Part shown: positions 4,972-64,000 of the stretch, piece after piece
Layout: every line of letters begins with the position of its first letter
How positions within the stretch are numbered: the stretch's first letter is position 1
From: Escherichia phage ERS-1
DNA: 64,000 nt
Strand: one strand, 5' to 3'
Sequence record: PP337211
The notes under the pieces: generated by a model
Told to the model about the DNA's origin: nothing
The model's input: the letters and a program-made list of their open reading frames with translations, nothing else
Databases searched by the model: none
Translations under genes and position numbers: made by a program

Positions 4972-5002
4972 TATGTCTAATGTCGAAGCCACACACCACC
5001 GC

Positions 5003-5850
5003 CAGAGTTAAAGGATCGACTCCCATGGAACACCAGCACCTTCGGCATCAAGCTGAGCAAGATCTTCCCGTGGCTGGTTCAGGAAGGAGCTGCCGGGATC
5101 AATCGACTTCCCGTGGCGGACCTCCTCAACGCGCCCGGAAGGTGAACAGGCCTGCGCATGACCTTCGCCCAGCTCCGTCCAGGATGACCTGGCGGTGAAC
5201 GGTCGCCTTGGCGGGACGTTCAACCTGCTTCGCCGCCGGAAGGATGACGAAAGCGACGGGACCGCGGGCGCCGCCGCACGGGCGACTGTCCGTGAATGCC
5301 CGAACCTCCCTGGCCGGCTCGGCATGAGTTCGCCCTTCACGTGGTGGGGCCTTCCACCTCCCGGAGGAAGGCCGGGCGTCTGGGCGTCCGGACGATGTCA
5401 CCTGCCTGGAGCTGCGGCGGCGGCTCGTCACGCCTGCTCGGCGAAGGACCTGATTGGTGGGGCCTGGCTGTCTGGGTTGAAGCCCGGGACAGGTACTGTA
5501 CGAACACCGAGCATCCGAGGACCCTCCGGTGATGGTGGACATGGCGGGGATCAAGCGCAAGGACGCCAAAGGAAACTACCTGGGCCGTCCTACGGGATGG
5601 GCGGGGCGAAGATGTGCCTGGGCTCGGGCTCCCGACGATGATGGCCGTGCGCGGCCCCCGCTTCCGCTGTTCGACGCGGCACCTGCCCGGAGGGTCGGCG
5701 CCTGGTCGCGGAAGGGGCGCGGAGGTTCGAGGCCGCGGGGCCGGAGGGTCAGGCCCTCCTGGACACCCTCCACCCGGGTGCCCGTTCGCATCGGAGAAGC
5801 TGGCGAAGGCTTGCGAAGCCCGGGCGAAGGCCGTGGGCGGCGTCACATGA
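5003..5850 (+). pseudogene. first coding region of block A, hypothetical protein, frame lost repeatedly
   Basis: Protein-like stretches in three frames in succession (LPWNTSTFGIKLSKIFPWLVQEGAAGINRLPVADLL; DDLAVNGRLGGTFNLLRRRKDDESDGT; MVDMAGIKRKDAKGNYLGRPTGWAG; FASEKLAKACEARAKAVGGVT-stop at 5850). Confidence 0.35.
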
Positions 5851-6619
5851 CCTGAGCGGTCGCCGCTGCCGCTTCCCGAAGGAGGGGACGGGAACTACGA
5901 CTGGGACCCGGCGACCAACCGGCTGATCGGGCTCCTCCCGCGGACCGGGTCAAGATGGCGATGGTGGCCTGCGCGGAAGCCGGACTGGGGCGTCCCGGGG
6001 CCGGCGATGAGATCGCCTTCGGCTAGGCGAGGCGGAGGAGGCCGCGGAAGCTGCCTGGTTGCGGACGTGTACGCCGCCCCAACTCCCGTCAAGGTGGACG
6101 TGGAGATTGGGCAGGCTGGGGTCATCGCTTGGGCTGGACGGGAGCCGCCTTTGCGGTTCCGCTACGGGTGACGTGGGTGTCGGCTCACTCGTTTGCGGAT
6201 CGCTGCGGGTGTACCCGCTCGACCCCGCAGGAAGTCCGGGCGAACCCCTGGAGAACGATATGCGCCGTGGCAACGACAGCGTCCGTGGACCTCGAAGTGT
6301 TGGCGAGCGTGAGAAAGGGGGCCCTGGTCGACGGCGGCGGTGAGGAGGAAGTCTGGATGCCGGGTTGGTGTCCGCGCGGTCGAGAAGAAGGGCCTGCGGC
6401 CACCTGGACCGTCACCGAATGGATCGCCGGGTCAGAAGGGGCTGATATGAATGATCGCTGTGCGCTGGGAAGTTCTGGGCGGCGATGATCTGGGAGGCGG
6501 TCCTGGTCTGGCTCCTGGTAGGCGGTTGCCGGTGGACGCCTTCGAGTCCTTGACCTGGCCTCCTGCTGGGCGGCACTTCCTCGGAACGTTGCCCGGTTTC
6601 CGCTGAAGGAGGAGGTGAA

Positions 6620-6838
6620 ATGAGCGAACGTCAAGACCGCCTGGGACCGCCGCGATGTTGGGCTGGCCGGTCGTCGCGGGCTGGAAGGGGTGATCAAGGT
6701 CGGAGCCGTCCTGGTCGGCCGGGCGGTGGCGCGGCTTCGACCGGGTTCAACGGCTTCCCGCCCGGTGCGATGACTCGCCGGAGCTGTACGCTGACCGCGG
6801 TGTACCTGCCGTCGGTGGCGGAGGCGTTGGCTCTTTAG
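6620..6838 (+). CDS. hypothetical protein start with strong RBS (GAAGGAGGAGGTGAA-ATG); downstream frame drifts
   Basis: AGGAGG 6-8 nt before ATG 6620; N-terminus MSERQDRLG, then protein-like sequence continues in another frame (DRRDVGLAGRRGLEGVIKVGAVLVGRAVARL). Confidence 0.4.
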   Translation: MSERQDRLGPPRCWAGRSSRAGRGDQGRSRPGRPGGGAASTGFNGFPPGAMTRRSCTLTAVYLPSVAEALAL

Positions 6839-9800
6839 GCTCGCCTGCGACGGCTTCGCTCTACATTCTTTCCCTGCTGTCCGAACTGTATGGAGGCCGC
6901 GGGGAAGGCGGGCGTGAAGCGGGTCGCCTTCCCGGTCGACTACGGGCTGCGATCCGGGGTGGGTTGCTGAGTGGAATTCGACGGTTGATGAGGCTTTGGA
7001 AGTCGCCCGCCGTTAGGGGTTGAAGCGAGGTGGGTAGATGTCTGAAGCCGGGCGCGGGACTCCCTCCGCCCCGTCATCCGGTCGCTGGACCCGGTGCGCG
7101 TGGAGAACCCCTTTCGCGCCCGGGACCCCGGATGTGAACTATGCCGGGCTGGATTGAATTGAAGTTCGCTGAACGCTGGCCGCCCTGGGCGGACCGCTTC
7201 CGAGTGGACCGACTCCACCTGCCCAGCACCTGGCTCACCCGTCGCCGGGTGCCGGGGCCGGGCCTTCCTCCTGCTGAAGGTCGGGAGACGGAGTGGTTGC
7301 TGATTCGATGGAGCGGTGGCCGCTGCGACGCCGGGCCGGGTTCCGCGAGAACGCCTGTATGAGGTCTGCGCTGCCGTTGGATGCCTTCCAGAAATGAGGA
7401 GATTTGTAAATGTCGCCGCGGTGAGGCGGGCGGAAGGTGAAAGCCCACCGCTACACCGCCGCTGGCAGGGTTGAACCAAATTGAGGCCGCGAAGGAGTAC
7501 GGGGTCCTTGCACCGCTACCGTGATGGGAAGCGGACCGCCGCCTGGACGATGAACCGTGCCTGTCCCGGCGAGGTCCGAGCCCGAGGTCTGCTTGCTGTT
7601 CCGCCGCCGCTCGGGCAAGACCTGCGCGAAATCGCCGCCGCTCTGGGCTGACTCGCCTCGGGTTGTCCAGATGGCAGGACGGAAAGCGCCGGTTGAGCGC
7701 CTTCGTGAATATTGGGGCTTTTGAGGGGGATCGGAAATGGCGGAACTGCCGAAGTGGAGACGAGGATGGTTGACTTCCTGAAGAAGCGGTGCCGGAGGGG
7801 CCGTGGGTCCTGACGGCCATCGTCCGGACGGGAAAACGGAGACGGTACCGTCTTGTTGCCCACTGCTTAAGGCCGCGGAGTGGATCGAGGGCATCAGGGC
7901 AAGCGGGCCCCGGATACTTCCTCGCCAACCCGGCTCCGCCGGGCGATGGACGTGAAAGCCTCGAAGGAGGGATGGCCCGCCTCGCCTGGCTTCGCGTCCA
8001 CCCCGCGAGCCGGGAGGACTTCGAGGAGGAGCGGGCGCGGGCGCTCAGCTGCTCCGGTCTGACCGCCGGAGCCGGCGGTCATCGTTGACTCGGGCGGGGG
8101 CTATCCGGGCTTTTGGCGTCGAACCCGTCCGAGGCCTGGAGATTGCTGGATCGGCGGCGAAGGCTGGAGCTGGAAGCGTAGGTGTTCGGCTGGAGAAGGT
8201 GTTTCAGGCGGACCAGTTGCCGGCCACGTGGACCGCATCATGCGCCTCCCGGGCGATCAACATGCCCCGCGAAGAAGGTGGAGAAGGGTCGCCTGCCGAC
8301 CCTCGCCCGTCTGCGTGGAGTGGAATGAGGCCGCTACCCCATCGAGGTTTACCCCCGCGGTTCGAGTCCAGATGGCGGAGCAGGGCCTGGCCGGGGGCCG
8401 TCCGAAGGTGAGATTGGGGCACGTCCGGAGGTTCGGGGACGGAGGAGCTGCGGAGCGGGCCCTTTAGGCGCAAGGCCATCCGTTACCCGCGCTGGCGCTG
8501 ATCGCTACTGGGCAGGGACCCGCCGGACCGACCAAGTACCCCTCCCGGTCGGAAGCCCTGTTCGGGTGCTCGCTGCGACCTCGTGCGGGCGGAGGTCCCT
8601 GATGAACGACTTCGCGGGTGATCGCCGGCTTCGGCGAAATCGCCGCGCAGCCTGTCCGGTAGGGCCCAACTGGGAAGGCTACGCCTGCGGGGGTTCGAAC
8701 GTGCCCTTGAGGAGGCGGTGCACCCTCGGCCTGGGCGGACCAGAAAGCTCGCCGTCGGTGGAGGTTGGCGGAAGTGCCGGGCGGTGAGGTCTGGGACCCG
8801 GCGATGAAGCGGTACGGGTCTGGGGGTCCTTCGAGGACTTCCGGCACGCTACCGCCGGAGGTAGTGGTTGGTCGGAGGAGGGGGTAGCCGTTGAGAAGGC
8901 CGCGGGAGCCTTCTGGATCGATCACCCGTGCTGCCCGGCACGAGACGGTTGGTTCGCCCCCGGCCTGAGGTCGAAGAAGCCTATGCCTCTGGCGCGGGTT
9001 CGCGCGCGATCCTCCCGGCGAGAGCTGCGCCCTCCCGGCACCTTCGTGAGGGCGCCGCCGGGGAACCCGGCTACCACGGTCACCTGGTCGGGTGGATGGC
9101 GCGGATGGTCCCGTTGCACGGCCCGGCGAGTGGCCGTGGTCCTCCGCGGTCGCCGCGGGCCGGGTTCTCTTCCTTCGCCGGTAGTCCTGGCGCGATGTTC
9201 GGGGGCGTCACGACTTCCGGCTTGCGACGAGCTGGTGGGCTCCTCAAACGCTTACCTTTGCATACCGTCCTGCTGTTCGGTGATGAGGCTTTCTTCGCCG
9301 GGAGGAGGCGAAAGCGTGCCGAGACCTCGCGACCGAAGAACGCCTGGTGATCGAGGGTAAGGGCGTGGACGCGGAAGCGGCCCCAACCATGTCCCTGGTC
9401 CTCGCCTCGAACGAAGATTGGGCGGTGCCCGCGGGTCTGGATGAACGCCGGTCTTCGTTGGTGGAGGTGGCGAGGGCCCGGTGACCCCGCCTGATTTCAG
9501 CGGTTGGGTGATGATCTGGAGGGCGCAGGACGCAGCCCGCCCCAGCCTTTCTCCCACCTATGACCTGAGCGCCTTCGAGGTTCGCCAGTTAACCGGGCGC
9601 TGCAGGACCAGAAGATCATGAGCATGTCGCCGGAAACCTGTGGATGTATGAGAAGCTGTGGGAGGGCCGGTCGCTCAAAGACCGACCAGGACTGGCGAAG
9701 CAAGGTGGTGAAGGACAGCTGCTGCCGCATGACGACGACGCAACGACCTCCGCGACCAGGGCCGGAACTTCCGCATGAGCCGCACCCGGCTTCGGCGGCT

Positions 9801-10503
9801 GGCTGCCCGGGCCTTCCCGGACGGCTGGCCGCGAAGTGAAATGGCGGAGATCGCTTGGACGGGTCAAGGTTGGCTTCGAGGTGATGATCGAAGAAGCGCG
9901 TGGCCACCACCCGCCGCCGGAGGTGTCCGGCGCCTGGGAGAACTTTGGCGGCCCGTTCGAGTGGCCCGGGGTCCAACCTACCAGGAGCCTCTGAGGACGG
10001 CCCGAAGTCGGAGGCCGTCCCTTCCCAGGATGCCCCCATGAGTGAGCACGCTGTAAGCGACGAAGCGGGAGCTGGAGGGGGCGGGGATCGCCTACACGGT
10101 GGAGCTGGCCGGAGAGGTCAGGAGGCCGCTTCGCCGTGAGGGGGAAAGCCCCGATGGTGACGTGCTCGCGGACTTCCTCCACGTCGCGTGGCCCTCGGTC
10201 GCTCGCCTTCGCGTCTGGTGGAAGACCGCCGCGCGCTGGAATTGACCTGAACCGCTTTACTTCTTCGGACTCTATCACTTCTTTGCCAGTTTGAGAAATG
10301 AACTGGTCCGGCCAGGTCGCGATTCGAGATTGGAAAGGAGCTGACCCTTAAATTAGGAAGAAGCCTTCCGCTGGTGCGGCTTCCCGATCCCGCGCGGTGG
10401 GGGTCCTGGTAAGTTGGGCGAGGACTCGCTGCGCGAAGCCCGTTGCGATTCGAGTTTGAAGTCGGTTCGCCTTCGGGCTATGCGTGGACGCTGACGAGGT
10501 TGT

Positions 10504-10758
10504 GTGACCGCCCGCTGGGCTGCTCCGCTCGCCTTCGCCGTCCTGCTGCTCTGGGGCCTGGCGGGGGTCTTTGCGGACTATCCTGGACCGCCCGGAGGTT
10601 TGTATCAGCTACCTGACCCGGGAGTGTGTGCGCGTGGTGAACGCGGACGGCTCCCCCGGGATCGTGTGGAGCCCTCCCGGACCGCTATGAGCGAGTGTGG
10701 GTGGAGAAGATTCTGTTTCAACCCTGAGAAAGGAGTTGCGCTACGTCTTTTTGGGTAG
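10504..10758 (+). CDS. secreted or lipoprotein-like hypothetical protein (signal-peptide-like N-terminus)
   Basis: GTG start after GACGAGG; MTARWAAPLAFAVLLLWGLAGVFADYPGPPGG looks like a signal peptide with AxA-type cleavage site. Confidence 0.35.
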   Translation: MTARWAAPLAFAVLLLWGLAGVFADYPGPPGGLYQLPDPGVCARGERGRLPRDRVEPSRTAMSECGWRRFCFNPEKGVALRLFG

Positions 10759-13700
10759 GGTGCCGCTTCACTCAGCGGTTGTTGCCTTTGGGGTGGCTGA
10801 GGAGAACCCCGGGGCCGTCGGTTTTCGGGACCGGCCTCAAGACGCCATCGCCTCCTCCTCCGCGAGGGCTGCGCATCCCTTCACGCTGGGAGTGCAAGCT
10901 GGAGTTCGGCATCAAGCGGATCGCGTCCGGGTCGATGACTTCAACGTGGTCACGATGAACAACCGCCGTCTGGGCTTCACCACGGAGGTCGGCAAGACCT
11001 GGAAGTGTGGCCTTCCGCGAGCTGTATGGCGATGGACGAACGGGGCGAAGTGTTCGAGGCCTGTGAGGTCCCGGAGGTCGCCGCGGACGAAACCGTGATT
11101 GTGGTCCGGGGCGAAAGTTCCTGGATGTCTGGGCTCCCGCTCCACCCTTCCCGTCCTCCTGAACCGCTGGAGTGCGCGAGGCTGTCCGTGCCCTTCCCGG
11201 CCGTCTCGGGTTTCGCGCACGACCGGGGCGCGAGCTACCGGCTGGAGGACCCTTGGGCCGAGGTGTCCGGAAGAAGGTGGACCTGACGGAGGATCGGACC
11301 TTCGGAAGTGGTCCTGGACATGCGCCGCCGTCCGCCGCGGGCTCTGCGAATCCGGCAGGCTCCTCTGATCAAGAAGGCCGCCACCGCGCCCAAGGTGACC
11401 TTCAGCGTGCGCTGGAGTTCGAGGGCGTGGAGCCGTCCTAGCCCTTCCTGGCGACCGTCTCCGAACTCGCCTGCTTCGACTCCTCGCCGCCGCTCCGCGC
11501 CGAAGGCTTCGCGCCTGGACGCATGGATGGCTCCCGCCAAGGAGGCGACCCCGACGCGCCTGAGCGAGCTGGAACGGACCCGGCTGGAGAAGGCCGCGGG
11601 CTTCTGCGAGCGGCTGGGCTTCGCCGTCCAGGAGTACCCGATCCGTTGCTGTGAGTTCCTGGGCGAGGAAGTCCTGGGCCGGCGGCGAGAGGGGGATCAG
11701 GTCCGGGAGCCTGGTCCTTGATGATGGGTACACGCTGGCCGGCACGCTGATCGAGGAGTTTCGCCTTCGCCCCTCCGCTGGACCATGAAACCTGCCGCGG
11801 GTTCCTGATGGACACGTTCGTGTCCTTGGGCGGAACAGACGTTGCAGAACCGCTATGAGCTGGAACACGCCCTTCCGTCTCACCGGAGATGCCTGACCGC
11901 CGCCCGGGCCGTCCGCATCCACGGCCACGCCCAGAAGGCGGAGCTGGAACGCGAGTTTCAGGAGCGACTGAACGAACTCGGCGGACGCCCAGGAGCAGAC
12001 CAGCCGGGCCTGGCCGGTGCTCTGAACGCCGCGGACCTCCCGATGGAGGAGCTGGGCGAGTGGGAGCTGGACGCGAGCTATTGGATGACCCCGGCTGCGC
12101 CTTCCTGAGCAAGCGCGAGGCGGAGGACGCCCGCCCCTCCTTGGGCGACCTCCTCCGTCGTTGCACGGCCTCGGCTAGGCACCTCCGAGGAGCCCGACTA
12201 TGACAAGGAGCCCGATCAGAAACCGCTGCCGATCTTCGCCCTCGCCCTGCTGCCCCTCGCCCGCTCGCGGTCCGGAGGACCGCCCCCGCAGAACGCCGGG
12301 AGACGGTCCGGCGTGCGGGTTGGCGGCTCCTCGCCTCGCCTCGCCCCTCCGTCCCGGGTCCTCCCGGCGGAGGTCGGGGCGAAGCCGGACCCGGCCCGCT
12401 TCGAGCGGCTGGAGTGCTGCCGCGACCCGCCCGACCCCTGGGTGCCGTATCGTTTGCGAACCTCGGAGAAGGGGTCAGAAGATGGAAAACCGGAAGAATT
12501 ACCCGCCTGGGCTGACGAAACCTTCGGCAGTGAAGCACCCGGTGGAAGTCGCCGCCGCGGATGAACGTGGAGGTGGCGGAGCTGGTCGCTGGCCTTGCCA
12601 CCGTCGCCGCCGTCCCGGTCGGAGGATGGACCCGGAGCTGGTCCGGGAACTCCGGAAGGAGTGCGCGGACGTGTTCGGTTGCTCGCCCGTCGCGGAGAAG
12701 CTGGACGTGGACCTTTGGGTCTGTGGTGAACTTAGGGATGGGGGTGCACCGCTGCTGGGCTGGACCCGGAGCCCGTCCGGAAGATGTGCGTGGAAACCTT
12801 CCTGGACCCCGGAAGCGGGCTGAAATGGAGCTGGAAGGTTGACCTTCCCCTGCGACTCGGGGCTCTTTGCTGGGCTTCCACTCCGCCGACGTAGCCCTGA
12901 ACTGGGTCGGTCCGCGGCAGGGGATCGCCGCCGAGCGGAGGACGCCGTGGTGCCGACCTTCCGGCCGGGGCTTCTTCGAGGGCCTGACGGGCGTGAAGGT
13001 TGTACCTGGGCCGCGAGCTGCGCGCCTTCTGGAAAGCCGGACCCTGTGCGAAGGAGAACCTGGGACGTCACGATGGCGGGTGTCCAGGCCCGCCTCGGGC
13101 GCAACCCGGAGGACCCCCGCAAGTACCAGGTGACGGTCCTGGTGTATAGCCAGTTTGCCCCGGCCTGAGCCTCCACGGACATTGACCTGGCCAGTGCGCG
13201 AGCCAGCACCCCTTCCAGCCGATCGGGACGGCGGAGCCGCTTGCGCGGAGTACCTGGGGAGAAGTACGGCGACAACGACCCCGCGGCGGCCTCCCGGGAT
13301 GCGGTCCGCGCCTTCGGGAGGAGTGCCGCTTGATGGCGGAACTCGCCCGCGACGTACCCGGAGAAGCTGAAGCGCCTCGAAGCCGACGTGGCCAAGCTGT
13401 CCGGTCAGAACCCGGCCCGCCGCGCCGCCTGCGCCACCCGTGGATCCCCGCGGAGAAGCTGCTGCCCGCGGGAAGTCGCGTGGCTGAATCAGCGCCTCGG
13501 GAACTCGGAGGGCCTGCTGTGACGGACCTGGACGAAGCGGCCCTGGCCGTTCTGTTCGAGGAGTAACCGGTACGCTTTCCGGTCGCGGACTGGGAGGAGT
13601 TCCTGGTCATTGCCCGGGCGTCCTCGCCTCGGAGCGGGTCCGCTGCCGGTCGGCGCTGGGAGTATTTTGTGGAGGACTACCTGGAAGCCGATCTGCGCCG

Positions 13701-16410: not shown

Positions 16411-16968
16411 ATGAGTGATGACAACACGATGGACAGGCGTGATGATCGACCTGGAGACGATGGCGACCGGCCCCAGCGCCGGGGTCGTTTGTCGGGGCCA
16501 TCCGTCGTTCAACTGCCGAACCGGATTGGTGAAGCCGGACCTGTTCGAGGTGGACGTGGACCTTCACGCCGACGCTGGGCGGCGAGGTCGATGCTTCCGG
16601 CGGTCGGTCTGGCGGGACCAGGTGGACCCTGCCCAGCGCTGGCCGAAGGCGATGCGCTCCGCGCTGACCGACCTCGCCCTCCTGGTCGGGGTACCCGGAC
16701 CGAAGCGGGTCTGGGCCGGGGCTGTCCTTTGACGTTGCCATCTAGGGTTACTATCGCCGGCGGGCGTCCCGATCCCCTGGCATACTCCGCGCTGATGCTG
16801 ACACCCGAACCGTGTATGACCTGGCGAAGGAGCGGGGCTGGTCGAAGCCGGAGGGGGAACGGGGCCGTTCTGCCGCCTGGAGGACTGCCGCTGCCGTACC
16901 CTTGCCGTCCATCAGCGCCCTGAACGTCCTCCGGGGCAGCCTGAAGGAGAACCCGGTAATTGGCTGAC
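16411..16968 (+). pseudogene. DnaQ/DEDD-like 3'-5' exonuclease, frame-disrupted
   Basis: AAGGAGA RBS then ATG 16411; Exo I-like motif VMIDLETMATGPSAGVV (16439-16489) sits in a different frame from the start codon; protein-like C-terminus ...SISALNVLRGSLKENPVIG ending at 16968 in a third frame. Confidence 0.35.
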
Positions 16969-20634: not shown

Positions 20635-20907
20635 ATGAGCGGACGCTACAAGGTCCTGGCCGGGTCCCAGTGCCCGGCCACCGCCGCTCGACTACACCGT
20701 GGTGGATGTCCGGAGCCTTTGCCCGCGGGCGCCTCGGGTGCCGTCGATGCGACTGCGAGACGTTTGGCGAGGAGGAAGCCCTGCGGTTGCCCGCGCCCGA
20801 ACGCGGCGATCGGCGAGTTGAAGTGTACCCTCGCCCGGGCCGCTCGCCTGTTCGAGGAGGCCCTGCCGAAGTCGTGCTGGGCGCCAGCGCCCTGGACGCC
20901 GGCGTGA
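20635..20907 (+). CDS. hypothetical Cys-rich protein; start with GGGAGGTG RBS
   Basis: GGGAGGTGAGTG-ATG at 20621-20637; MSGRYKVLAGSQCPATAARLH...; C-terminal part protein-like (PCGCPRPNAAIGELKCTLARAARLFEEALPKSCWAPAPW). Confidence 0.4.
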   Translation: MSGRYKVLAGSQCPATAARLHRGGCPEPLPAGASGAVDATARRLARRKPCGCPRPNAAIGELKCTLARAARLFEEALPKSCWAPAPWTPA

Positions 20908-25719: not shown

Positions 25720-25725
25720 GAGTAT

Positions 25726-48499: not shown

Positions 48500-49248
48500 A
48501 GTCGTTCAGGGCGTCGATGACGGAGCTGCGGTTGAGGACCCGCGGTTCCCACGCCCCGGATCGTCCCGCCGATCCGGTTGATGTCCGAAGGACGGTGCGG
48601 CTTTGTTCTGCCTGGGCTTCCCTGGTTCTGCACGCTGGCCCCGGCCGGTCGGTTGTGCGTGCCGTCGCCGCGAGCCTGTTGCCCGTCGAGAACTCCCCAC
48701 CGTATTGGCGAGGCCGGTGATGATCGGGCCGATGTCCTCCCGGCGGCGCGCGTCAGATTGCCCAGAGTGGTCGTGTCGTCAATCCCCAGCTCGATTCTCG
48801 TCCCGGAACAGGGTCAGGGCGGTGATCACGGGAGGTGAGGACGATCAGGAATGCGCCCAAGGGGTTCGCGGCGATGGCGGCGTTGAGGGCGACCACCGCG
48901 GTGCGGACCGCGTTGAACGCAGCCGCGCCCCCGGCGACGATAGCGAAGCCCGCGCCCAGGAGGACCTTGGCGAGGGTGTCCGGTTATTGCTGATGAAGCT
49001 GTTGATCGCCTTGGACTGGCTCGCTCGCCCCGGTCGCCCGTCCAGTTGCCGGCTCCCTGGCCCTCCCGTTGTTCTGAAAGGACTTGGAAGGACTGGCCGA
49101 TGGTGGACGGACTGGGGTCGTTCCTCCGGCCTCCGTCCCGGGCGTTCTTGAAGGCGTCGAAGATGATGTCGGCGCTGATCTTCGCTCCTTTCCTTATCCT
49201 TGCCGGAGTTCGCCGCGGTTGTCCCGTCGCTTGGCCATCCTTCGCCAT
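48500..49248 (-). pseudogene. tail tape-measure-like protein fragment (bounds uncertain, gene probably longer)
   Basis: Minus-strand stretch VLLGAGFAIVAGGAAAFNAVRTAVVALNAAIAANPLGAFLIVLTS (~48841-48975), resembling conserved tape-measure segments; protein-like N-terminus MAKDGQATGQ...KISADIIFDAFKNARDGG at 49248. Confidence 0.35.
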
Positions 49249-55200: not shown

Positions 55201-58200
55201 ATCGGGGCGGCGGGGCCGGAGGGGCCGGAGCGGACTTGCCTCCGGCGTTGCCTCCTCCAGTTCTGGCCGTGACGTGCGCCGGTTTCTCAGGCGTCAATGG
55301 TCGAGGCGGTTGCCTTGGTGGTGCCGGATCTTCGCCGGCTGTTCTCCTTTGCAGAGTCGGTCGGGTTACTGAGCGGCCTTCGCCTCTCGCGGGCGTGGCC
55401 CGGGCGACGGCTTCCACGTCAGCGCGGGCACGCCGGCGGAGCCCTGCCCCGCTTCTCCCGGCGGCCATCGTGGGCTCTCCGTCCTTGGTCCGAGTGAGAG
55501 TGTCGTCCGCCGGGTCCAGGCCGAGGACCGCCTTCTGAGCTTGGCAATCGGTTTCCGCGGTTTGGCCCCCTTGCCGGACCGGCGGGACCGCCGGTTGCTC
55601 GTCTCCCTTTGGGTTACCCCCGGCTCGCCCGGCTTCGGCTTCGCTCCGCCGCTGAGGCGTACGCGTTGCGGTTTTGCCGCTCCCGTCCGGGCGAACGTCG
55701 CCGTGTACCGGCTGTCGGCCGTCGCTGGCAGCCTTCTCTGAGATTGCTGGCCCTTCCGGTACCTTTGCGGGGTGCCTTCCGGTAGGCCTGCCGTTGCGTC
55801 TCGAGGAAGCGGGCGTGGCGCTGACCTCCCGCCGGAGCGGCGATGGTCAAGCGGCCCTTGTCGAACGGTAGGGCTGACTGCCCGGAGCGGACCGCGGCCC
55901 GCCTGGGGGTCTGGTCAGGACGAAGGTTGTTTGGATGATGGTGGGTCCCGTACGGTTCTCCTGGGTCAGCGGCTGTTGCGTTGCGGCCAGGACCCGCGGG
56001 TCCACAGCAGCGTCGGCAGGGTATCGCTGAGGGCGTCGCCCAGGCTCCGCCGTCCGTGATCGTGCCCGGGCGCTCGATGGGGGATTCGCCCCCGGCGGCG
56101 TGGACTGGATCCTGGTCTGCCGGTTGCCGGTAGTGCGTCCGCGGCTCCCGCGATGGCTAGGGTGTTCGTGGCGCGGGACGCGGCGTTGATCCCGGTTGTG
56201 TTCGGAAGCGGTCAACGGTGCTGCGGCGACCTGTCGGCGGTGTTGTCGGTCGCGTCTCCGCACCGGTGACGCTGACATGGGCGCTCCGTCCGCGGCCTCC
56301 GCCCGGGTACCTCGTCGAAGGTCCTGCTGTTCCGTCGGCTCCGGCGGCGATTCGGTCGGTTGAATCGTTGAGCCCTGCCCTGCCGTCGCCGTCGAACTTC
56401 GCCTGGTGGTCCGCTTGGCGATGGTGTCGGAAGCGGCGACAGGTGCCGGCGCTCCGCGCCGTGCGTCAGGTCGCGGCCGGAACTTGTTCCGGTCCAGGGT
56501 TAGGGTAAGTGGGCGGATGGCTTCTCCTGAGCGTGTTTCGGAAGGGTGACCCGCCCTGGCGGCCCGCCCTTCGGGTATGACGGGGGCCCTCCCCCGGAGG
56601 GCGGGACCGCCTTAGCTGGCGACGCCGGCGTGGTGCCCGCCCTCCGCCGAAGGGCGCCAAGCCGGTACCACTTGACGCGCCAGATGTGCTCGTCGGAGTC
56701 CTCCACTCGCCCGTCGTCGTGGTCCTGGATGCCCGCGGCCTGGGTCGTGGTCGGGTCGGCGACGCCGTGGGTGCGCGAACCGTTGTCTGCAGTACCTGCC
56801 AAGATCGTGGTGGTGTGGCGCCGGTGCCCTTGGTCTGGTTGGTCGGGACGTAGTCGTTGCGGAAGATCGGGGTGCCGGAGTAGGCCGGACCTCCGCGCCG
56901 CTGGCTCCATGCCCGTCATGGATGGTGGCCGCGGTGCGGAGTAAGCGCTGTAGCTGTGGACGCGGTGCGGTTGGTGCGCAGCCCGCTGGCTGTCCCGTTG
57001 GCGAGGTCCTTTGCCGTGATGGCGAAGCCGACGCCGGAGCCGTTCGCGCCGGTGGTCGCTTTCTGACCCGGAGGCGGGCGGCCGGATCGTGCCCGCCAGT
57101 CTGCGTCGCCCGCGCCGGCGCCGTTGATCGGTGGTTCCTGCAACTTGCGGCCTGGCGGACTTCGCCTTGGAGGCGATCTGGACCTGCGGTTGGTCGTCGC
57201 CGTCGCCGCAGCGGTAGCCTGGATCAGGCTGCTTGGCTTCGCGGCGTCACCCATGATGGTGGTGAGGTCGGAGTTGACCTTGGTGAGGTCGCAGCGGCCT
57301 TACCGTGTGGCGCCGGAGAAGGTCGTGCGATGGGCCTTTACGACGTTGCCGGTGACGTTCTCGCGGTTGTACGCGAGGCCGTCGCCTTCGATCAGTCGAG
57401 GGCGCCGAACCCGGCGGTTGACGGTGATGATGTTCTCATCCCTTGCCCGTGCCGTTCGTCCCTGGCCGCTGGCGCTTTCGGGTAGAAGCTTAGCCCTTTA
57501 CCGGCCTTCTCTTCCGGAGTCGATGAATCTTGCTGGCGGTTTTGCCGTGCCGGATTGCCGGTGTTCCGTCGCGGCCCGCGCAATTCACGCGTGGGCCTTC
57601 GCCTCTGGCGTATGTCGGTAGCGGACACCACAGTACGGTTGGCGAAAAGGGAAGCCCCCTGGCCGGGGGCCCCTGGGCCTCCCCGGATCCGTCCCTCGCC
57701 CACCGCGGCCCGCCTTGAACTGACCCTTGGCGAGGCCCTGGGCGATCCTTTTCGTTGGCCGGTTGGTGACCTTGCCCTGCTGGCGCGGAGGCGCTGACCG
57801 CCGCAGGTGCCGCCGCCCGCCGGGCTTCCGACTCCAAAGGGTGGTCCTGGCTTCTCGTTGGCCTTCGGTTTTTTTGCTGACCTGCTCGCGGATGGTCCGT
57901 GGGCTGGCCGGTTGCTGCGATAATGTGGTCGCCCTGGATCACTGAACACCTGACTTTAGTGCCTGCTGCTCCACCCCTTCCTCTACCTGGGCTTGATGAA
58001 CGGTGAGTTCCGGGGACGCCCTTCGGCCTCCGCGACGGTGGCGGGTGGTGCTCGACCTGGTAGCCCGTGGCCGGTTCCTGGAGGGCTTCGGCGCGGGCCT
58101 CCGGCCTTCTTCAGGCCCTTCGCGCGCGCATTGGCCAGCTCTGGTGAACCTTGTCCGGTTCAGGCTGGCTTCGCCGCCCTTGGCGGTTTCGTTCTGGAGT

Positions 58201-59798
58201 TCGGTCCGGCTTCGCGCCGACGCTCGGCCTTGATTTCCTCCGGCGTCGCCGAAGCTTGCCCGGCTGTTGGCGAGGTCTTGGCCTTCGCTTCGGCGCGAGC
58301 GGCCTTGAGGGTACGGTTCCCTGCCGGTTTTCCTCACCTCCCTTGTGGGCTTCGTCCGGGACGGTCTGCCCTTTATCGCCCTGCTGTAAGATTCCCCGGA
58401 ACTGTTCCGGGACCTTGTCGATGGAATCGACCGGAGCTGAATTCAGGGTGGTGGAATTGTATCCTCGTTTGCCGTGGATCACCCGCCTGTCCCGGCGCCT
58501 TGCGGTTTGTGTCTGTAGCCTCTGGGGCTTTTCGCGTCGGTGCCCGCCTTGCGGAAGGCGTCCGGCTTGCGCTCCGCGAGTCAAGAGCCTTGCTGTTGCC
58601 TGATCCGAACTGGTCTGTTCCTGCCCGCCCTCCCGGCTGCTGGCCTTGGCCCTCGCCCCTAACCTCCTTCCTGGAAGGAGGCGGGCTGCGCTTCAAGTCC
58701 TGACACGCGGTCGCCGCCGGAACCCTGCCCCACGTTCTCCGCGGCCCGGCTTTCCCCTGACGTCCTGGATCGGCTTGCCCGCCTCCTTCGCCTTCCGGCG
58801 GAAGTCGATTTCACGCTTGGCGCGGGTCCGGGGTCGTTGCGGTCGGGCGATTGCCCGGAGGCCCTCGCCGTCGATGTAGGCGACCATCCGACCGGCAGTT
58901 GAAGTGGGCCGGGGGCTTCGCGTCCTTGGGCTGGAGCCGGGGATGTCCGTGGCAGCTGTTCGTCGCCCGGGCTCCCGCGGCCGTCCCGGGTGGCGTGCCC
59001 TGCCGTGGCCGACCGTCCGGCGTGCTCCTCCCCGGCCTTCGCCGTGATGATGTCGCTGTCGGCGTCCCGGGTCAGCCCGCGCGGTATTGGACCCGCGGTC
59101 GACCGCGGTTCGGACGATCCCCTGGGCGTCCCGCCGGGCGTCGAGCGATGCCGTCCTGGGCGCGTCTGCGCGTCCGACCCCGCTGCGATGTCGTCAATGG
59201 GCTCCCCGTTCGTCTGTCCGAGCTGAAGGGCCGTGGTCCTCGCTGCTGGTCAGCCGCCTCCGGTGCTGAACCTGTCCTGCAGGAACCGCCCTGGAACGGG
59301 CGGGAGGTGGCGATGGCCCGGAGCTGGTCCGCGCTTCATGCCTTGAAGCCACCTCAATCGTGATGGAGGATGTAGGCAGGTCGATTTTCGGCCTGGCCTT
59401 CGAGGACGGCGAGCTGCCCCAGTCCGCCCGGCGGGTCTTGTACTCCGCGAGGGCCGCGGCCCGGGCTCCGCGGACGTCCGGCGGCCTTCCTGCGTTCGCC
59501 GGTGAAGTCCGTGCGCGGCCCTCGAAGCGGGCGAGCCGGGTGCGCGGTGTTCGGTCGGCGCGGTCCGCCTCCTCCTAGCCGGGCGACCCGCTCGGCGACG
59601 CCCGCGCTGTAGCGGCGCAGGTCATTTGGTGACGCAACGCGGCGTCCCCGGTACTTCGTTGAAGGTGGGCATTGCCTTCTCCATTTCTTCGGTCCGTTTG
59701 CTGAAGTGGTATAAGCCCGGTAATTGAGCGGCCGAGGACGATGCTCAAGGAGCCAAAGCCAAGAAGTGCCGGGTTCGACTCGCCTCCGGATTCCGGTT

Positions 59799-59843
59799 GC
59801 TTCGCCGCCTTCGCCGCCTTCGCCGCCCTCGCCGCCCCTCGCC
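59799..59843. repeat. tandem 9-bp repeat (GCCTTCGCC-like) x ~5
   Basis: gcttcgccgccttcgccgccttcgccgccctcgccgcccctcgcc read directly. Confidence 0.7.
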
Positions 59844-61999
59844 CCTCCCCTTCGGCGGGTCTTCTGGCCGGGTCGGTGCCGGAGCTGCGCGGCCCATCGC
59901 CTCGCCGATCTTCCTTCTGCCCTCCCCTCGTCCGTTGAAGTCCTCCGGCAGGACCCCGCGGCGGAGGCCGTTCGGGTGCCCCGCGGCGACGTCGCGCTTC
60001 TCGCGTGCGACTTGGAGGGCCTGAAGGCCCGGGGCGTCCGTTTTTCCGTCAGGCTCCGGCCTGCGCGCCGCCGTTCGGCCCAGGCGGAGCCGTTCGCGGT
60101 GATGTCCAGGGCCTGGGCCGGGCGTCCTCGAACTGCCCGTTGTCGCGTTCCGTCGCCGGTCGCCTCCGCGCTGTCCGGCGCCGGGCGGTCGCCGTCGCCC
60201 GCCGGTCTGCGCTTCGGGAACTCCGCGCCAGGCCCGCCCCTTCCCGCCTCGGGTGTCCTTGAGGTCCGTGCGGCCCGCGGCGATGGCTTGGCCGGTGTGC
60301 TCACCAGAGAACCGGCCCGCCGGGTCCGGGTTGGGCCCTTGTCCGGCCTGACCACGGCCGGGTCCCAGTCCTCCCCGCACGCCCCCGAGGCGAGGATCGG
60401 GAAGCGGGAGACGGTGAGGATGTGGCGTTGGTCGGAGGAGGACTGCCTGTGAGCCACGTCCGTTGAGGTGAGCCGTGTCCGGGAGCGGGGGCTTGCCCGG
60501 CGAAGCCTTGGCGGTCCGCGTAGAAGGTGACCTGTGGGACGGGTAGTTCTGGCCCGTCGCCCCTTCCTCGCCCTTGCCCCCTTCTGGGCGTTGGACTTTT
60601 GCCGGCTCCCGGCTGAGGCCCGGCTCCGGACGCGGATGCGGCGCTTGGCGTCTCCGCGAAGCCGTCCTGCTCGGCGTAGTGTTCGATGATGCGGACGTGC
60701 TGGAGGACTTCACCCCGTCGATCACCTCTGACCGGGCGGCTGGGGTCGGCTCTGATCAGATCCTGTACGGGCGGTGCTCTCCCGGCGGTCCTTTGCGGGT
60801 CCGGGGTTGGCCGTCCTCCCGCGGGGCCGGGCGGGGGTCGATGAGGACGTGGCAGGGCCTTGCCTTGCCTTCGCGAACCCTTGATGGGCCAACGTTTGTC
60901 GTTCCCCGCAGGTTCCTTGTTGGTGATCGTCTCCAAATTGCCTTGGGCACGTCTCGCCTCCAGCTTGATCGGCTCGCTGAGGGCTTGCCGCTCTGGGCGT
61001 CCGCGTCTGTTCGACCTTGTTGAGGAGGACGGCGGAGGCCTGGTGCTCCTGATAGCCCTTGTCCGTCTCCCTCCTGGTGGCGGGTACGCTCCGCCCGCCT
61101 CGCGGATCGTTTGCCCCGCCTGGTCTCCATGACGTGCCGTGCGGAGGTTGGGCGTCGCCCCCGCTGGTCGTGGCGGGGGGCTCTTCGGGCTTTGTCGGCC
61201 GGTTGGTTCTCCTGGTTCGCGGATCTCGCCCGAAGGCGAGGACCCTGGCAGTTGCACCGAGGTTGCCCTGCTTGACGCGCGTGGCTCGTGCGCGGTAGCG
61301 GATCGCGTCGGCGTGGTCCTCCGCCTCCGTGTTTGTTGTCCGTCCTCGTCGTCGTGGGGGGGGGACCGTCCGATGGTCTGTGATGCCTGTCGAAAGACGG
61401 GACCTGCCGGGACCTCGCGCGGTCCCCCGCCCGCCGGAGGTAGTCGCCCCCCAGGCTCGCGGATTCGCTCCTGCCTGCTTGCGCGAGCCTGGGCCTCGTC
61501 CGCGGGCGTCGGCGACGCCCTTCCTCTCCGTCTGGCGGCGATGCCGTCGCCGTTCTCCCGTCGAAGATGGAGGAGCTGCGGGGCCGGGCTGACCCACCTT
61601 CCGGCGCCCAGCCCCTCCTCCCGGCCCTTGCCCTTGGGCGACCTCGGAGGTGAGGCGCGGATGCCCTCGTTGCGCGTTCCGTTCCTGCCGTACCGCCCTG
61701 GAACGGGTGATCGCCCCGCCTTCCCGGCCTCGCGGCCGTTCCCCTGGAACGGCTCCCCTTCCGACTCTGCCTCGGCGACGGCGAAGGGCTTGCAGCTGCC
61801 CCGTCGAAGCCGCGGCGACTTTCACCGCTTCGGGATCGCCGATGGCGGGACGGAGGGCGGGTGCACGTCCCCGCGGTAGATGTCGTCGGTGTCCCTTCCC
61901 GCGCAGACGCCCCAGGAGCCGTGGAGCCGGCGGCGAGTTCGGAGGGGTTCCGGCCGCGGCTCGAATCTTGCCGATGTACTCCGGGCGGCGTGGGGGTAT

Positions 62000-63190
62000 C
62001 CGGTTTTCGGCACGGACCGGTGGATGGCGACCCGGGGCGGTTCGCGCTCGCCGTCTCGTCGCGTCCAGGATTGCCCACCGCGGCTGTGGGGAGGCGGAAG
62101 CGGGCCTCTGACCCTGTTGTGGCCGGGGCCGTAGGGGTTGGTGGTCGCCCGGTAGCGGGTCCCGGCTTCGCGGGAGTGGTGGTGTCCGTTAATGGCGAGC
62201 CCCGCCGTCGCCCGTTGGTGCTCTTCCCGCCGGTTGCGGATAGGCGTGGCCGTGGCAGTTCAATCCTCCGCGACTTCTGGCGCCCTGCTCCTCGCCGTCC
62301 GGGAGGTCTTCTGTGCTCCCCTTGTTGTACTTGGCCCCCGGGAAGATGCGCTTGAACCGTTGGTCTGTCGATCGCGTCTGAGGGCTGGGGTAGGTCTGAC
62401 GGGGAACTGTATGCCCCGCCTCTCCACCCGTAGCCCTTCCCCCGCGCTGGAGGAAGCCTTCCCTGGTCGGTCTTGCCCGGGCCGCGCGTCCCCTGCCTCC
62501 CTCGAAGATCGGGTGCGCCTTTAGGAAGGCGAGCTGCGACCCGCACCGGCCCTTCCCTGTCGCCTCCGACTCCTTCCCCCGTCTCCGGTCCGCGGCAGCC
62601 CTGGCTCGCCGGGCTCCGCCTCGCGCCGCTCGGGTTCGGGTAGTCCGGGCGGGCGGCGATGGCGACCGCCTTGTCGGCTTCGGTTCGAGCGGTCTTCCTG
62701 CCGCCCTCCCCGGTCGGACGGCCCGACGGTCCGCGGGCGAGGTCCCCGGGTCTGGTTCTGCCGTCGTTGATCGTGGCCGGAGCCCCCGGGACGATTACCC
62801 CGCCGGTGCCCGAGGTGGTTGCTGGCCGCGTCCTTCCCGTCCTTGAACTCCTGCGGTGGGCGCGGAGGCTGATGGCGCGAGTGAATCGCTGGCACCCTCC
62901 GCCGGTGATGATTTCGTCCTTGAACTTCCCGCCGATGATCGGCGCTCCGCCGCCCCGCGCCCGCTTCAGGCCGCGCCGGAACCTGGTGCCGGCTTTGTCG
63001 CTCGGCGGGCGTCCTCCAGGGCCTGGGAACTCTCGGTCCCTTCCCCGGTGATAGTCGATGGTGGAGCCGGAGACGCGGCCTCCGCGGTGTATTCCGCCCT
63101 CCCGTCGGGACGCGTGCGGAGGGCTCCTGGCACCTGCTCCTTGCGGTCCGAGGTGAAGGGCCCTTCGGCTCCGGCTTTTGGTCTTCCTGG
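62000..63190 (-). pseudogene. P-loop NTPase-containing coding region (copy 2), inverted paralogue of 22927-24000
   Basis: Walker A GTRGPGKTD at 62465-62491 (minus); flanking AVAIAARPDYP, GKFKDEII and KGYGW segments are shared with copy 1. Confidence 0.35.
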
Positions 63191-63419
63191 TTGCGGTTCG
63201 CTCCCCCTTCGGCGTGTACTGTTCGTCGGTTGTGCTGCGTGGCCACCCGTCCCGGCCTCGGTCGGGCTTTCCCTCGCCGCGAGTATAGCGTGAGCTTGGG
63301 CAATAGCCAAGGGCGGGTCGCGCCCGCCCGCGGGGAGAGGTCGAGGAGCGTGTGGGCGGATTGCCGGCAGGCGCGCAGCGTCCTCCGCTTAGGTTCGAGG
63401 GCTGCGTTCCACTTTCGTC

Positions 63420-63515
63420 CGAAAAAAAAAAAGTCAAGCGGTAAAGGTTAAAAACCTGCCCTTTATATACAGACAGACAGATAGATACTTAACTCACTAA
63501 CTCACTTACCTTAAC
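63420..63515 (-). promoter_or_regulatory. island 3 (inverted copy of island 1): GTTAAGGTAAGTGAGTTAGTGAGTTAAG + (TATC)2(TGTC)3 + TATATAAA + TTGACT + T11 on the minus strand
   Basis: Reverse complement aligns base-for-base with 22560-22700, with substitutions and a different microsatellite composition. Confidence 0.7.
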
Positions 63516-64000
63516 CCCCTGACAGCCCTTCGGACAGCCGAAACCCTCAGTGGTGATTCTCTGGGCGGTCCGCCGGGTCGATTTGTCGGCAGAATTTATT
63601 TCAGGGTAAAGATCGAAGGTAACCTAGCTAAGGACGTGAACCCCAGACGGTTTGACCTCCCGCCTCGCCTCGCTTTCTCTTTTCGGAGCTGAACCCAGTG
63701 CATTTCGTAACCCGGGAGGTTCCCGGTCACGGAAGTGGAGAAGGAGGAGGGAGCCCCGCCGGTTTTCCGCTGGCCTTCGGCCTCCTGTAGCGAAGTCGGT
63801 CGATTGCCGCCCGGCGGGGCATTCAGGGGCGGGCTGCCCAGGTGTCGACCTGGATGGAAGGGGGTGAGGAGCCGCCCCGGCGGGCCTCCAGGTGGAGGGG
63901 AGGGGGTGGTTGTTGACGTAGGTGGAGCGGGGCGGTGGAATTGAGGGCGGCGTCCTCCGGGTCCCACGCCGCCCTCGACGGCCTGTCATCCCAGGTCGGT

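Follow-up and report, generated by a model that had tools for sequence, protein, structure and literature searches.

Frame loss in GC-rich DNA of an Escherichia phage ERS-1 record as a sequencing artefact, very probably of concatenated nanopore molecules and hypermodified Yuavirus thymidines

The sequence record PP337211 of Escherichia phage ERS-1 raises the question of how DNA that is recognizably coding can lose its reading frame again and again over tens of kilobases while a T4-like segment directly adjoins it. The stretch analyzed here (the window, 64,000 nucleotides) had been given three possible explanations in a preliminary description, namely, a neutrally decaying relic element, an assembly full of indels that had been joined to clean phage sequence, or a sequence mutated in silico. 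The frame decay is not a real genomic feature but a sequencing artefact, and we consider it very probable that the window consists of several barcoded nanopore molecules joined together, with the frame lost where the T of TG in Yuavirus DNA is unreadable to the base-caller.

As a property of the sequence, the loss of frame over the GC-rich part is evident and denser than the one break every ~10-60 codons first described. In the alignment of 5042-64000 with its closest relative, Pseudomonas phage vB_Pa-PAC7 (PP408254.1; PAC7 below), there are 2,646 indel events in 56,356 aligned window bases (47 per kb), 2,386 of which are not multiples of 3 (42 per kb), so spaced that the median distance between frameshifts is 17 nt (~6 codons) and the mean 8 codons; in the Yuavirus parts, deletions outnumber insertions by ~4:1. 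The count reaches 24 in the exonuclease gene, 41 in that of the Dda-like helicase, 60 in that of the ribonucleotide reductase (RNR), and 109 in the primase gene. When nine PAC7 proteins were searched against the window with tblastn, no full-length gene in a single frame was recovered: the eight best-covered proteins are spread over 2-3 frames, the DNA polymerase gave a single HSP covering 54%, and the amino acid identity is only 31-45%. Thus, by frameshift count or by tblastn, every Yuavirus gene examined is broken in the window. These breaks are read errors, and the genes are probably intact in the underlying genome.

The window is collinear with PAC7 in eight blocks, spanning PAC7 11916-33349 and 37939 through 62356 to 15459, and each third of the GC-rich region is matched by between 63 and 71 Yuavirus-like records. 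On these similarities, the GC-rich material is assignable to a Yuavirus, that is, an M6/YuA-like siphovirus of Pseudomonas aeruginosa. As a relative of M6, YuA, LKO4, and PAC7 (Mesyanzhinovviridae), it is collinear with the whole 62-kb genome, has an underlying identity of at least 97% where this can be estimated, and covers the region of the M6-type kinase/AADT/PLP/radical-SAM cassette. The actinobacterial kinship implied earlier was not borne out, and an actinobacterial or actinophage origin was rejected, given that the strong matches are all to Yuavirus-like phages of Pseudomonas, Bordetella, or Sphaerotilus. Two mis-basecalled fragments make up this material. Fragment 1 (5042..25688, minus strand) corresponds to PAC7 33349 down to 11916 at 81-82% identity with 891 gap openings, and its real genes, on the window plus strand, are the 5' part of the DNA polymerase gene and those for dCMP deaminase, primase, exonuclease, endonuclease VII, and terminase. 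Fragment 2 (26130..64000, minus strand) corresponds to PAC7 37939 through 62356 and then 1 to ~15460, at 71-82% identity (78-82% in the main blocks); its real genes, on the minus strand, encode the 5-hmdU DNA kinase, radical SAM protein, HNH endonuclease, PLP enzyme, amino acid:DNA transferase, RNR, helicases, tail, lysis, and head proteins, portal, and terminase. The two fragments are inverted relative to each other and overlap in PAC7 11916-15459.

What joins these fragments to each other and to the T4-like DNA is technical sequence. The two junctions, at 4693-5041 and 25689-26129, both contain Oxford Nanopore (ONT) ligation-adapter and native-barcode sequences, and adapters and native-barcode flanks are confined, within the window, to these two places. 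The first junction opens on the minus strand at 4693..4780 with AGGTGCTG, NB02 (23/24), TTAACCTTAGCAAT, the ONT ligation adapter, and ATTGCT-AAGGTTAA; after a short T4-like scrap, there follow, at 4928..5041 and again on the minus strand, AGGTGCTG, NB02 (24/24), TTAACCTTAGCA, a garbled adapter, a garbled NB07-like barcode (assigned by eye, ~19/24), and CAGCACCT. The second junction begins at 25689..25771, a segment without assigned strand, with NB02 and then CAGCACCT, an adapter remnant, AAGGTTA, NB04, and CAGCACCT, and ends, beyond another scrap, at 26007..26129 (minus strand) with AGGTGCTG, NB04, TTAACCTTAGCAAT, the ONT adapter, ATTGCT-AAGGTTAA, NB05 (24/24), and CAGCACCC. The last of these segments has matches in 13 unrelated GenBank phage records, and in 12 of them it sits at the very end of the record; the megablast matches among RefSeq E. 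coli genomes and PLSDB were adapter and barcode remnants only, and an exact 50-mer did not occur in IMG/VR or the JGI metagenomes. The sequence of the ligation adapter is published (10.1101/2022.07.07.499093), as are those of NB02, NB04, and NB07 (10.1101/2021.06.06.447246). The hexamer ATGTAC at 26070 favors the older adapter (LSK109/AMII) over that of Kit 14. Between the T4-like insert and the first barcode flank lies a run of 15 T (4678..4692, no strand assigned), read directly from the sequence, and a second, similar run is found at ~25993-26006. The NB02 and CAGCACCT at 25689-25719 have an irregular polarity and directly abut phage DNA, a detail that we count against the proposed explanation.

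In all these respects, the window resembles untrimmed chimeric or concatenated ONT reads from native-barcoding ligation libraries ('in-silico chimeras'), of the kind that is cut apart with tools such as Porechop: it contains the start adapter AATGTACTTCGTTCAGTTACGTATTGCT, its barcodes have AAGGTTAA...CAGCACCT and AGGTGCTG...TTAACCTTAGCAAT as flanks, differently barcoded molecules stand in one sequence, and the errors are deletion-biased and strand-specific. However, whereas ordinary chimeric reads have a uniform error rate, the inserts here differ ~8-fold, and the excess is tied to one dinucleotide.

The T4-like DNA provides the internal comparison. The main fragment (1..4677, minus strand; Tequatrovirus, barcode NB02) carries, on the minus strand, gp55, nrdH, nrdG, and nrdD (3' part only), and 1-4667 is 97.2% identical to Escherichia virus KFS-EC3 and ime09. 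It had been called clean, and it does have far fewer indels, but it is not free of them: its 4,667 aligned nt contain 10, each of 1-2 bp (2.1 per kb), nine of which fall inside CDSs annotated in phage KFS-EC3, and a homopolymer deletion close to the end of gp55 is among them. The two scraps within the junctions are also T4-like. The one at 4781..4927 is in the opposite orientation to the main fragment, its positions 4783-4863 matching the other strand of KFS-EC3 at 92.6%; the other (25772..26006, barcode NB04, no strand assigned), AT-rich, of poor quality, and with a T run at its end, comes from the helicase-loader gene, gene 59; over 68 nt, it is 87% identical to the T4-like gene 59 of 489 records.

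The errors of the Yuavirus parts are concentrated in a single context. On the plus strand, the A of CA, which is the minus-strand T of TG, is wrong at 76% of 3,325 sites, in all 16 flanking contexts, in 70-74% of cases in fragment 1 and 75-82% in fragment 2. In terms of the minus strand, the T of 5'-TG-3' is miscalled at 74-76% of sites, and the call is nearly random (at the plus-strand A, A 24%, G 28%, T 15%, C 10%, deleted 23%), whereas the T of TC, TA, and TT in read orientation is wrong in only 5.0%, 5.7%, and 9.0% of cases when neighbors of TG are excluded. The error peaks at the A of CA and falls over ~3 nt to a baseline of 7%; more than 8 nt from any TG, it is ~5-6% for C, G, and T, a figure that includes up to 3% real divergence and is close to that of the T4-like part. 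An association of A errors with nearness to T in general was rejected, since they track the adjacent 5' C, that is, the CA dinucleotide. In the T4-like DNA, no such CA/TG-specific error is found: CA sites differ in 4.1% of cases and other bases in 2-4%. Right beside fragment 2, the NB05 barcode with its three CA matches at 24/24, a CA error of 0%, and the clean NB02 barcode shows no TG effect either.

That these lesions belong to the strand that was read, and not to the double-stranded genome, follows from the 3.5 kb of the Yuavirus genome that are present twice in the window, in opposite orientations and with discordant differences. Of the 3,544 positions covered twice, only 103 depart from PAC7 concordantly, so that concordant difference is at most 2.9%, whereas at 1,014 the departure is confined to one copy. 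A base pair is wrong in 79-84% of cases only in the copy that reads the minus-strand TG, against 28% in the other copy. Miscalls towards A on the plus strand remain below 1% whichever phage strand is presented, and the bias holds to the window strand in both genome orientations. Natural divergence as the cause of the ~80% identity was rejected on these grounds, that is, the rarity of changes towards A on the plus strand and the low concordant difference.

The same observations weigh on the explanations in which the damage precedes the sequencer or never involved one. A genuine, neutrally decaying phage relic, such as a pseudogenized prophage fused to T4-like DNA in a genome, would accommodate a fully conserved gene order with every gene frameshifted; yet it would have to carry nanopore adapters and four different barcodes exactly at the junctions, to hold two copies of one 3.5-kb stretch with different strand-tied 'mutations', to bias its changes by window strand with no flip when gene or genome orientation changes, and to combine 42 frameshifts per kb with ~97% underlying identity, which is not an evolutionary pattern. 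The relic reading, the first of the three originally offered, is thus refuted, and we give it practically no weight. Simulation or in-silico mutation, for instance, with a long-read simulator such as BadRead, fares better insofar as simulators add identical ligation adapters and produce chimeric reads, and as the source record did not turn up in the collections searched (GenBank phages, IMG/VR, JGI metagenomes, PLSDB, and RefSeq E. coli), a point that also counts against the explanation proposed here, but it remains very improbable: DNA differing by at most 3% and DNA differing by ~20% stand within one sequence, the error at CA (read-strand TG) is 76% in Yuavirus, 4% in T4-like DNA, and 0% in NB05, and four native barcodes appear with realistic partial adapters. 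Errors in one dinucleotide, on one strand, and in one of two phage DNAs do not support uniform mutation, and their motif and the 32.8% share of T concerned match the experimentally known modification of exactly that phage group. The stitched, indel-rich assembly came closest of the three, with the amendment that the stitches are nanopore adapters and barcodes and the quality is that of a single read. The adapters, the internal inversion with its duplicate coverage, and the base and motif specificity of the errors had been missed.

More demanding are the alternatives that accept a nanopore origin. The read direction appears to have been minus, judged from how complete the adapter is and from the T-run that leads it: together, top adapter and leader reach alignment scores of 44-72 on the minus strand versus 15-25 on the plus strand, and the top-strand ONT adapter is found on the minus strand with 27/28 nt at 26047-26073 and 25 nt at 4733-4757. 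If it was instead the plus strand that was read, the unreadable base would be the A of 5'-CA-3', whether because the adenine itself bears some unknown modification or because the modified T opposite it affects motor stepping. In favor of this, the barcode architecture is symmetric, and a complete bottom adapter (GCAATACGTAACTGAACGAAGT) followed by ACAT lies on the plus strand, which a Kit-14 bottom strand could partly explain; a bottom strand of that type would weaken the argument for a minus read. Such a plus-strand read seems very unlikely to us, considering that the top adapter and T-run leader are on the minus strand at both full junctions, that the documented modification of this phage group concerns T alone, and that read-strand TG would be wrong in just 25% of cases despite the passage of the modified base through the pore. 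An adenine modification of the Z-base or m6A type was likewise set aside, given the adapter orientation and the content of PAC7, which has a thymidine-modification cassette and no obvious adenine-modification genes. Generic poor quality of a genuine read, through old chemistry, a fast model, a GC-rich template, or pore and scaling effects, with no modification at all, is also very unlikely but has more in its favor. High-GC DNA is known to read somewhat worse, and the barcode and adapter flanking fragment 1 are garbled too, with errors of the A to G type, so some of the degradation reflects the state of the base-caller and not only a modified base. Moreover, far from TG, there is a second class of errors, read-strand A to G after a pyrimidine (CA 22%, TA 25%, compared to GA 9% and AA 10%), which the TG modification does not explain and which could stem from the modified strand opposite or from the way the signal is scaled. 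Nevertheless, a generic defect is at odds with the low error far from TG, with the normal reading of TG in T4-like DNA, NB05, and the clean NB02 barcodes, where a k-mer weakness would not be template-specific, and with an affected T fraction equal to the measured 5-NedU content.

This last correspondence leads back to the hypermodified thymidine of the preferred explanation. In M6, 5-NedU replaces ~30% of T (PMC5889632); its resistant restriction sites contain TG or TC, and its kinase modifies TG (PMC6449724, PMC7653180). TG holds 32.8% of T both in M6 and in PAC7, close to the ~30% obtained for M6 by LC-MS. The modification genes of PAC7 are collinear with M6 gp51-58, equal in order and sizes, and comprise, according to Pfam, a thymidylate-synthase homologue, Nmad5, the 5-hmdU DNA kinase, radical SAM, PLP, and amino acid:DNA transferase; the window aligns through the last four, and the thymidylate-synthase gene falls outside it. 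A PaMx11-type modification, with an FAD oxidoreductase and an acetyltransferase, was rejected, the cassette being of the M6 type with PLP and radical SAM; the 'FAD/FMN dehydrogenase' of PAC7 is a baseplate or tail protein by Pfam. We infer that the unreadable base is T, an assignment that depends on the read direction, and 5-NedU appears to be the chemical cause of the TG errors. Of the published TG/TC context, the TG half fits (74-76% affected) and the TC half does not (5.0%). It seems somewhat probable, on balance, that the footprint is a base-resolution map of hypermodification, with essentially every 5'-TG-3' modified on both strands and the T of TC, TA, and TT unmodified.

The explanation that we consider very probable runs as follows. 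The window would be raw, untrimmed ONT sequence, whether a single long concatenated read or a contig assembled from such a read, in which at least five native-barcoded library molecules of a multiplexed phage run stand in series with adapter and barcode between them, namely, the T4-like fragment, the two T4-like scraps, and the two Yuavirus fragments in opposite orientations. The latter two would be native virion DNA. Phages of this group turn some of their thymidines, once the DNA has been replicated, into a base that is bulky and positively charged (in M6, 5-(2-aminoethyl)uridine), and the first step is taken by a sequence-specific 5-hmdU DNA kinase. With the window minus strand passing through the pore, each T before G would yield a signal strange to the base-caller and, hence, a random base or none, along with errors 1-3 nt to either side. 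At the observed density of one TG per ~18 nt, this would result in the ~20% error, the ~42 frameshifts per kb, and the rise in GC from 64% to ~68% in the mis-basecalled parts, and the consequent loss of T on the read strand would produce the strongly negative AT skew of the window plus strand. It would also remove TGA triplets, ~70% of which are gone from the minus strand in the Yuavirus parts, and thus create long spurious ORFs. The largest of these, of 893 aa (60756-63437, minus strand), is recognizable as spurious by its composition (18% R, 15% G, 12% P). It had been dismissed as antisense or off-frame, and rightly so except for the antisense reading: it shares its strand with the real portal and terminase genes and is, therefore, a frame-hopping composite. 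T4-like DNA normally carries glucosyl-hmC and yet reads well here, which is unexplained and which we count against the proposed explanation.

A close parallel is dPreQ0 at GA in Pseudomonas phage iggy (PMC10484667), also a motif-restricted change of a phage base visible in nanopore sequencing; in that case, however, the base is G, the enzymes are of the DpdA family, the phage is a different one, and the experiment was designed for the purpose, whereas here the signal is an accidental by-product of a contaminating read. Literature searches found no direct nanopore reports on Yuavirus or 5-NedU DNA. Compared to the published work on M6, where TG or TC (TS) was inferred indirectly from restriction resistance, the present footprint points to TG only and suggests near-complete occupancy. 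If this is correct, the published 'TG or TC' would be sharpened to a strictly TG-specific 5-hmdU DNA kinase with near-complete occupancy. An error pattern that follows TG and not TC, with a T share equal to the LC-MS value, would locate a known hypermodification as a by-product, which suggests that the motifs of thymidine hypermodification could be mapped, with no new experiments, from native nanopore runs that are already available for Yuavirus and related phages. For annotation, the GC-rich 'decay' should be struck from catalogues of pseudogenes, relic elements, or novel ORFs, and the source record deserves a flag as containing nanopore sequence that is untrimmed and chimeric across barcodes. 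The case shows clearly how native hypermodified phage DNA degrades nanopore base-calling, to ~20% error, and the signs by which the artefact can be recognized are inflated GC, skewed composition, and the loss of stop codons that yields long fake ORFs.

One departure from PAC7 is a natural polymorphism and not an error. Between the radical-SAM and PLP genes, an HNH homing-endonuclease gene (28479..28862, minus strand) that is absent from PAC7 matches LKO4, PC1, PSP2, and NEU2024; in these, its annotation reads HNH endonuclease, and its neighbors are 'threonine dehydratase' and 'DNA repair photolyase'.

What the window holds is not a genomic feature but a nanopore read that is concatenated, untrimmed and cross-barcode; reading frames are indeed lost in the sequence of its GC-rich part, as an artefact of sequencing. 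In a composition scan of the window, the GC content jumps from 33% to 66-72% near 4.7-5.0 kb, and a second change, in plus-strand AT skew, follows near 26 kb, where values of about -0.1 give way to values between -0.23 and -0.40. Tequatrovirus genomes (KFS-EC3 and ime09) match positions 1-4667 at 97.2% identity, spanning gp55-nrdH-nrdG-nrdD, with a 260-bp deletion relative to KFS-EC3 at 1739/1740 that is probably natural variation. The GC-rich remainder is of non-actinobacterial origin and matches Yuavirus-like phages, with 63-71 records per third, including the Pseudomonas phages PaTs-2, PAC7, YuA and M6-like, as well as Sphaerotilus SN1. These megablast matches reached just 78-83% identity, yet they were unusual in their length and continuity, with 1-5 pieces covering each 18-20 kb. 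When mapped to the complete 62,356-bp genome of Pseudomonas phage vB_Pa-PAC7 (PAC7; PP408254.1), 5042-25688 (piece 1) corresponds to PAC7 33349 down to 11916, in reverse orientation, and, within piece 2 (26130-64000), positions 26188-64000 align in forward orientation with PAC7 from 37939, across the record origin, up to 15459. It follows that the pieces are mutually inverted and that the window holds PAC7 11916-15459 twice.

Oxford Nanopore library parts fill 4693-5041, between the T4-like DNA and piece 1, and 25689-26129, between the two pieces. Both junctions contain AGGTGCTG + barcode + TTAACCTTAGCAAT, the ligation adapter AGCAATACGTAACTGAACGAAGTACA, and ATTGCT-AAGGTTAA + barcode + CAGCACCT. 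Adapter sequences and the native barcodes NB02, NB04 and NB07 were compared with published papers that print them; the barcodes identified are NB02 (24/24 and 23/24), NB04, NB05 (24/24) and a garbled NB07-like sequence. Scraps of T4-like DNA lie between adapters at 4783-4863 and, from gene 59, at 25772-25992, and no adapters were found elsewhere within the window. Because barcoded adapters occur only at the junctions, with short inserts among them, the window comprises at least five library molecules, carrying four barcodes, joined end to end. Independently of the papers, the junction sequence recurs at the very ends (first or last 30-65 nt) of unrelated database entries, namely 12 GenBank phage records, a RefSeq E. 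coli plasmid and two Acinetobacter 'plasmids' of only 1.2-1.7 kb; such terminal recurrence in unrelated records is a signature of adapter contamination. If the read was demultiplexed by its ends, its four barcodes would bring phage DNA of other samples under the wrong sample, a concrete way for assemblies to become contaminated across samples.

Several details of the junctions are irregular. T runs of ~14-15 nt (4678-4692 and about 25993-26006), which in the read orientation are poly-A directly after the 5' barcode, separate two T4-like inserts from the AGGTGCTG barcode flank, but neither the Yuavirus inserts nor the short scrap that ends at 4927 has one; a stall artefact and tailing are both possible origins. 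The polarity of NB02 is irregular at 25689-25719, and at 25689-25733 NB02 + CAGCACCT, in the 'wrong' polarity and lacking AAGGTTAA, directly adjoins Yuavirus DNA. At 4972-5041, the adapter and the NB07-like barcode beside piece 1 are badly garbled; their counterparts beside piece 2 are perfect.

The preliminary description had reported pervasive frame decay across 4972-64000, and the alignments with PAC7 bear this out: they contain 2,646 indel events over 56,356 aligned bases, 2,386 of them frameshifting (42 per kb), at a median spacing of 17 nt, or ~6 codons. Compared with PAC7, the RNR gene carries 60 frameshifts, the Dda-like helicase 41, the exonuclease 24, the primase 109, and the two terminase copies 56 and 70. 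By the criterion set at that stage, intact single-frame genes in a translated search would have refuted the decay; tblastn with nine PAC7 proteins recovered none from the window, and most of the proteins are broken up over two or three frames, with amino-acid identities of 31-45%. The T4-like part, previously described as clean, is far better than the GC-rich DNA but still contains 10 indels of 1-2 bp, 9 of these within coding sequences annotated in KFS-EC3; several adjoin homopolymers, and one is near the end of gp55, which encodes the essential late sigma factor.

Two of the explanations offered earlier, namely, a neutrally decaying relic and an indel-rich assembly stitched to clean phage sequence, can be weighed against the error pattern. 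On the plus strand, compared with PAC7, the reference A is correctly called only 55-69% of the time, being read as G in 13-17% of cases and deleted in 10-15%; T is read as C in about 10%, G is correct in about 90%, and miscalls to A are almost nil, with a deletion-to-insertion ratio of about 4:1. The reverse- and forward-oriented pieces share this profile and, because it keeps to the window strand regardless of piece orientation, the errors do not come from mutation of the phage genome. Among the 3,544 doubly covered positions, 1,014 differ from PAC7 in a single copy and 103 concordantly, so that the true divergence from PAC7 is at most 2.9%. A twice-covered base pair is wrong in 79-84% of cases where it is presented as plus-strand CA, versus 28% in the other copy. 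Such discordant, strand-dependent errors between two copies of the same 3.5 kb rule out the decaying relic. The stitching is borne out insofar as the junctions consist of library adapters and barcodes; the errors are tied to a dinucleotide of the Yuavirus DNA, TG.

In plus-strand 5'-CA-3', the A is wrong at 76% of 3,325 sites, compared with 12% for GA. The calls at this A are effectively random (A 24%, G 28%, T 15%, C 10%, deleted 23%), and all 16 NCAN contexts behave alike. Around isolated CA sites, the error is 77% at the A itself, 33% at -1, 32% at +1, 25% at +2 and 16% at +3, settling at about 7% more than 12 nt away. CA sites of the T4-like part depart from the reference at 4.1%, and other bases there at 2-4%; the NB05 barcode, which contains three CA dinucleotides, is free of errors beside piece 2. 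Because these sites read normally, the effect belongs to the Yuavirus DNA rather than to the way in which the base-caller handles that k-mer. Although the barcodes are arranged symmetrically, the adapter has a direction: each of the two complete junctions shows the entire top (start) adapter, preceded by a leader-like T run, on the minus strand (alignment scores 44-72, versus 15-25 on the plus strand), and almost nothing is seen of the end adapter that the preceding molecule should carry, as is typical of real reads. We infer that it was the minus strand that passed through the pore, which makes the T of 5'-TG-3' the unreadable base. In the read orientation, with TG neighbours excluded, T is wrong at 74% in TG, 5.0% in TC, 5.7% in TA and 9.0% in TT; at a distance of over 8 nt from the nearest TG, the error for C, G and T is 4.6-6.0%, a background that approaches the T4-like level, allowing up to 3% real divergence. 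T4-like DNA, which is normally fully glucosyl-hydroxymethylcytosine, differs from its references by ≤3% in the same sequence in which the Yuavirus DNA shows about 20% error.

Loss of T on the read strand accounts for the displacement of AT skew by about -0.2 in both pieces (reference A/T counts 2,624/2,013 in piece 1 and 2,895/3,495 in piece 2), for the rise in GC from 64.4% to about 68%, and for the disappearance of about 70% of TGA triplets, which is confined to the minus strand (their number falls, for example, from 286 to 72 and from 177 to 62). The TGA loss explains why the longest ORFs, which reach 893 aa and have a high content of R, G and P, are all on the minus strand; they are spurious, as previously surmised, the cause being the read-strand loss of T. 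A further class of errors, present in the Yuavirus DNA (5042-64000) and absent from the T4-like part, consists of read-strand A to G changes after a pyrimidine; at sites separated from every TG by over 8 nt, these amount to 22% in CA and 25% in TA, versus 9% in GA and 10% in AA. The garbled barcode and adapter beside piece 1 contain changes of a similar kind, which points to the base-caller state or signal scaling; the pyrimidine-A errors could reflect signal scaling, a modified complementary strand altering motor stepping, or something else.

The genome of PAC7 encodes a thymidylate-synthase homologue, Nmad5, a two-gene 5-hmdU DNA kinase, a radical-SAM enzyme, a PLP enzyme and an amino acid:DNA transferase (AADT), in the same order and with the same sizes as gp51-gp58 of the Yuavirus-type phage M6, and the window aligns across the kinase, radical-SAM, PLP and AADT genes. 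The ~380 nt at 28479-28862 that are missing from PAC7 match an HNH homing endonuclease, which sits between the radical-SAM and PLP genes in LKO4, PC1, PSP2 and NEU2024, and mark the hypermodification operon as polymorphic for a homing endonuclease. In M6, about 30% of T is replaced with 5-(2-aminoethyl)uridine, and relatives of M6 are predicted to make the same replacement (PMC5889632); a TG or TC context has been inferred from restriction-resistance surveys, which also refer to modification of TG by the M6 kinase as unpublished data (PMC6449724, PMC7653180). Native Yuavirus DNA would then be mis-basecalled at hypermodified thymidines, and the read fits near-complete modification at TG only, given that, in M6 and PAC7 alike, 32.8% of all T lies in TG, close to the modified fraction, and that TG plus TC would make up 71%. 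Such TG-only, near-complete modification would refine a known phenomenon and is easily testable.

Records with Oxford Nanopore adapter or native-barcode termini include OQ790081.1, OR809231.1, OQ378339.1, OP583592.1, PQ641084.1, NZ_CP183148.1, NZ_CP145432.1 and NZ_CP145433.1, that is, untrimmed adapter contamination extends across public GenBank, RefSeq and PLSDB records. Several PAC7 annotations also look wrong by Pfam: the 'FAD/FMN-containing dehydrogenase' (PAC7 54504-55313) matches baseplate-hub and phage BR0599 domains, the 'integrase' (PAC7 28131-30542) is called primase in M6 and other relatives, and the kinase, radical-SAM, PLP and AADT genes are all labelled hypothetical.
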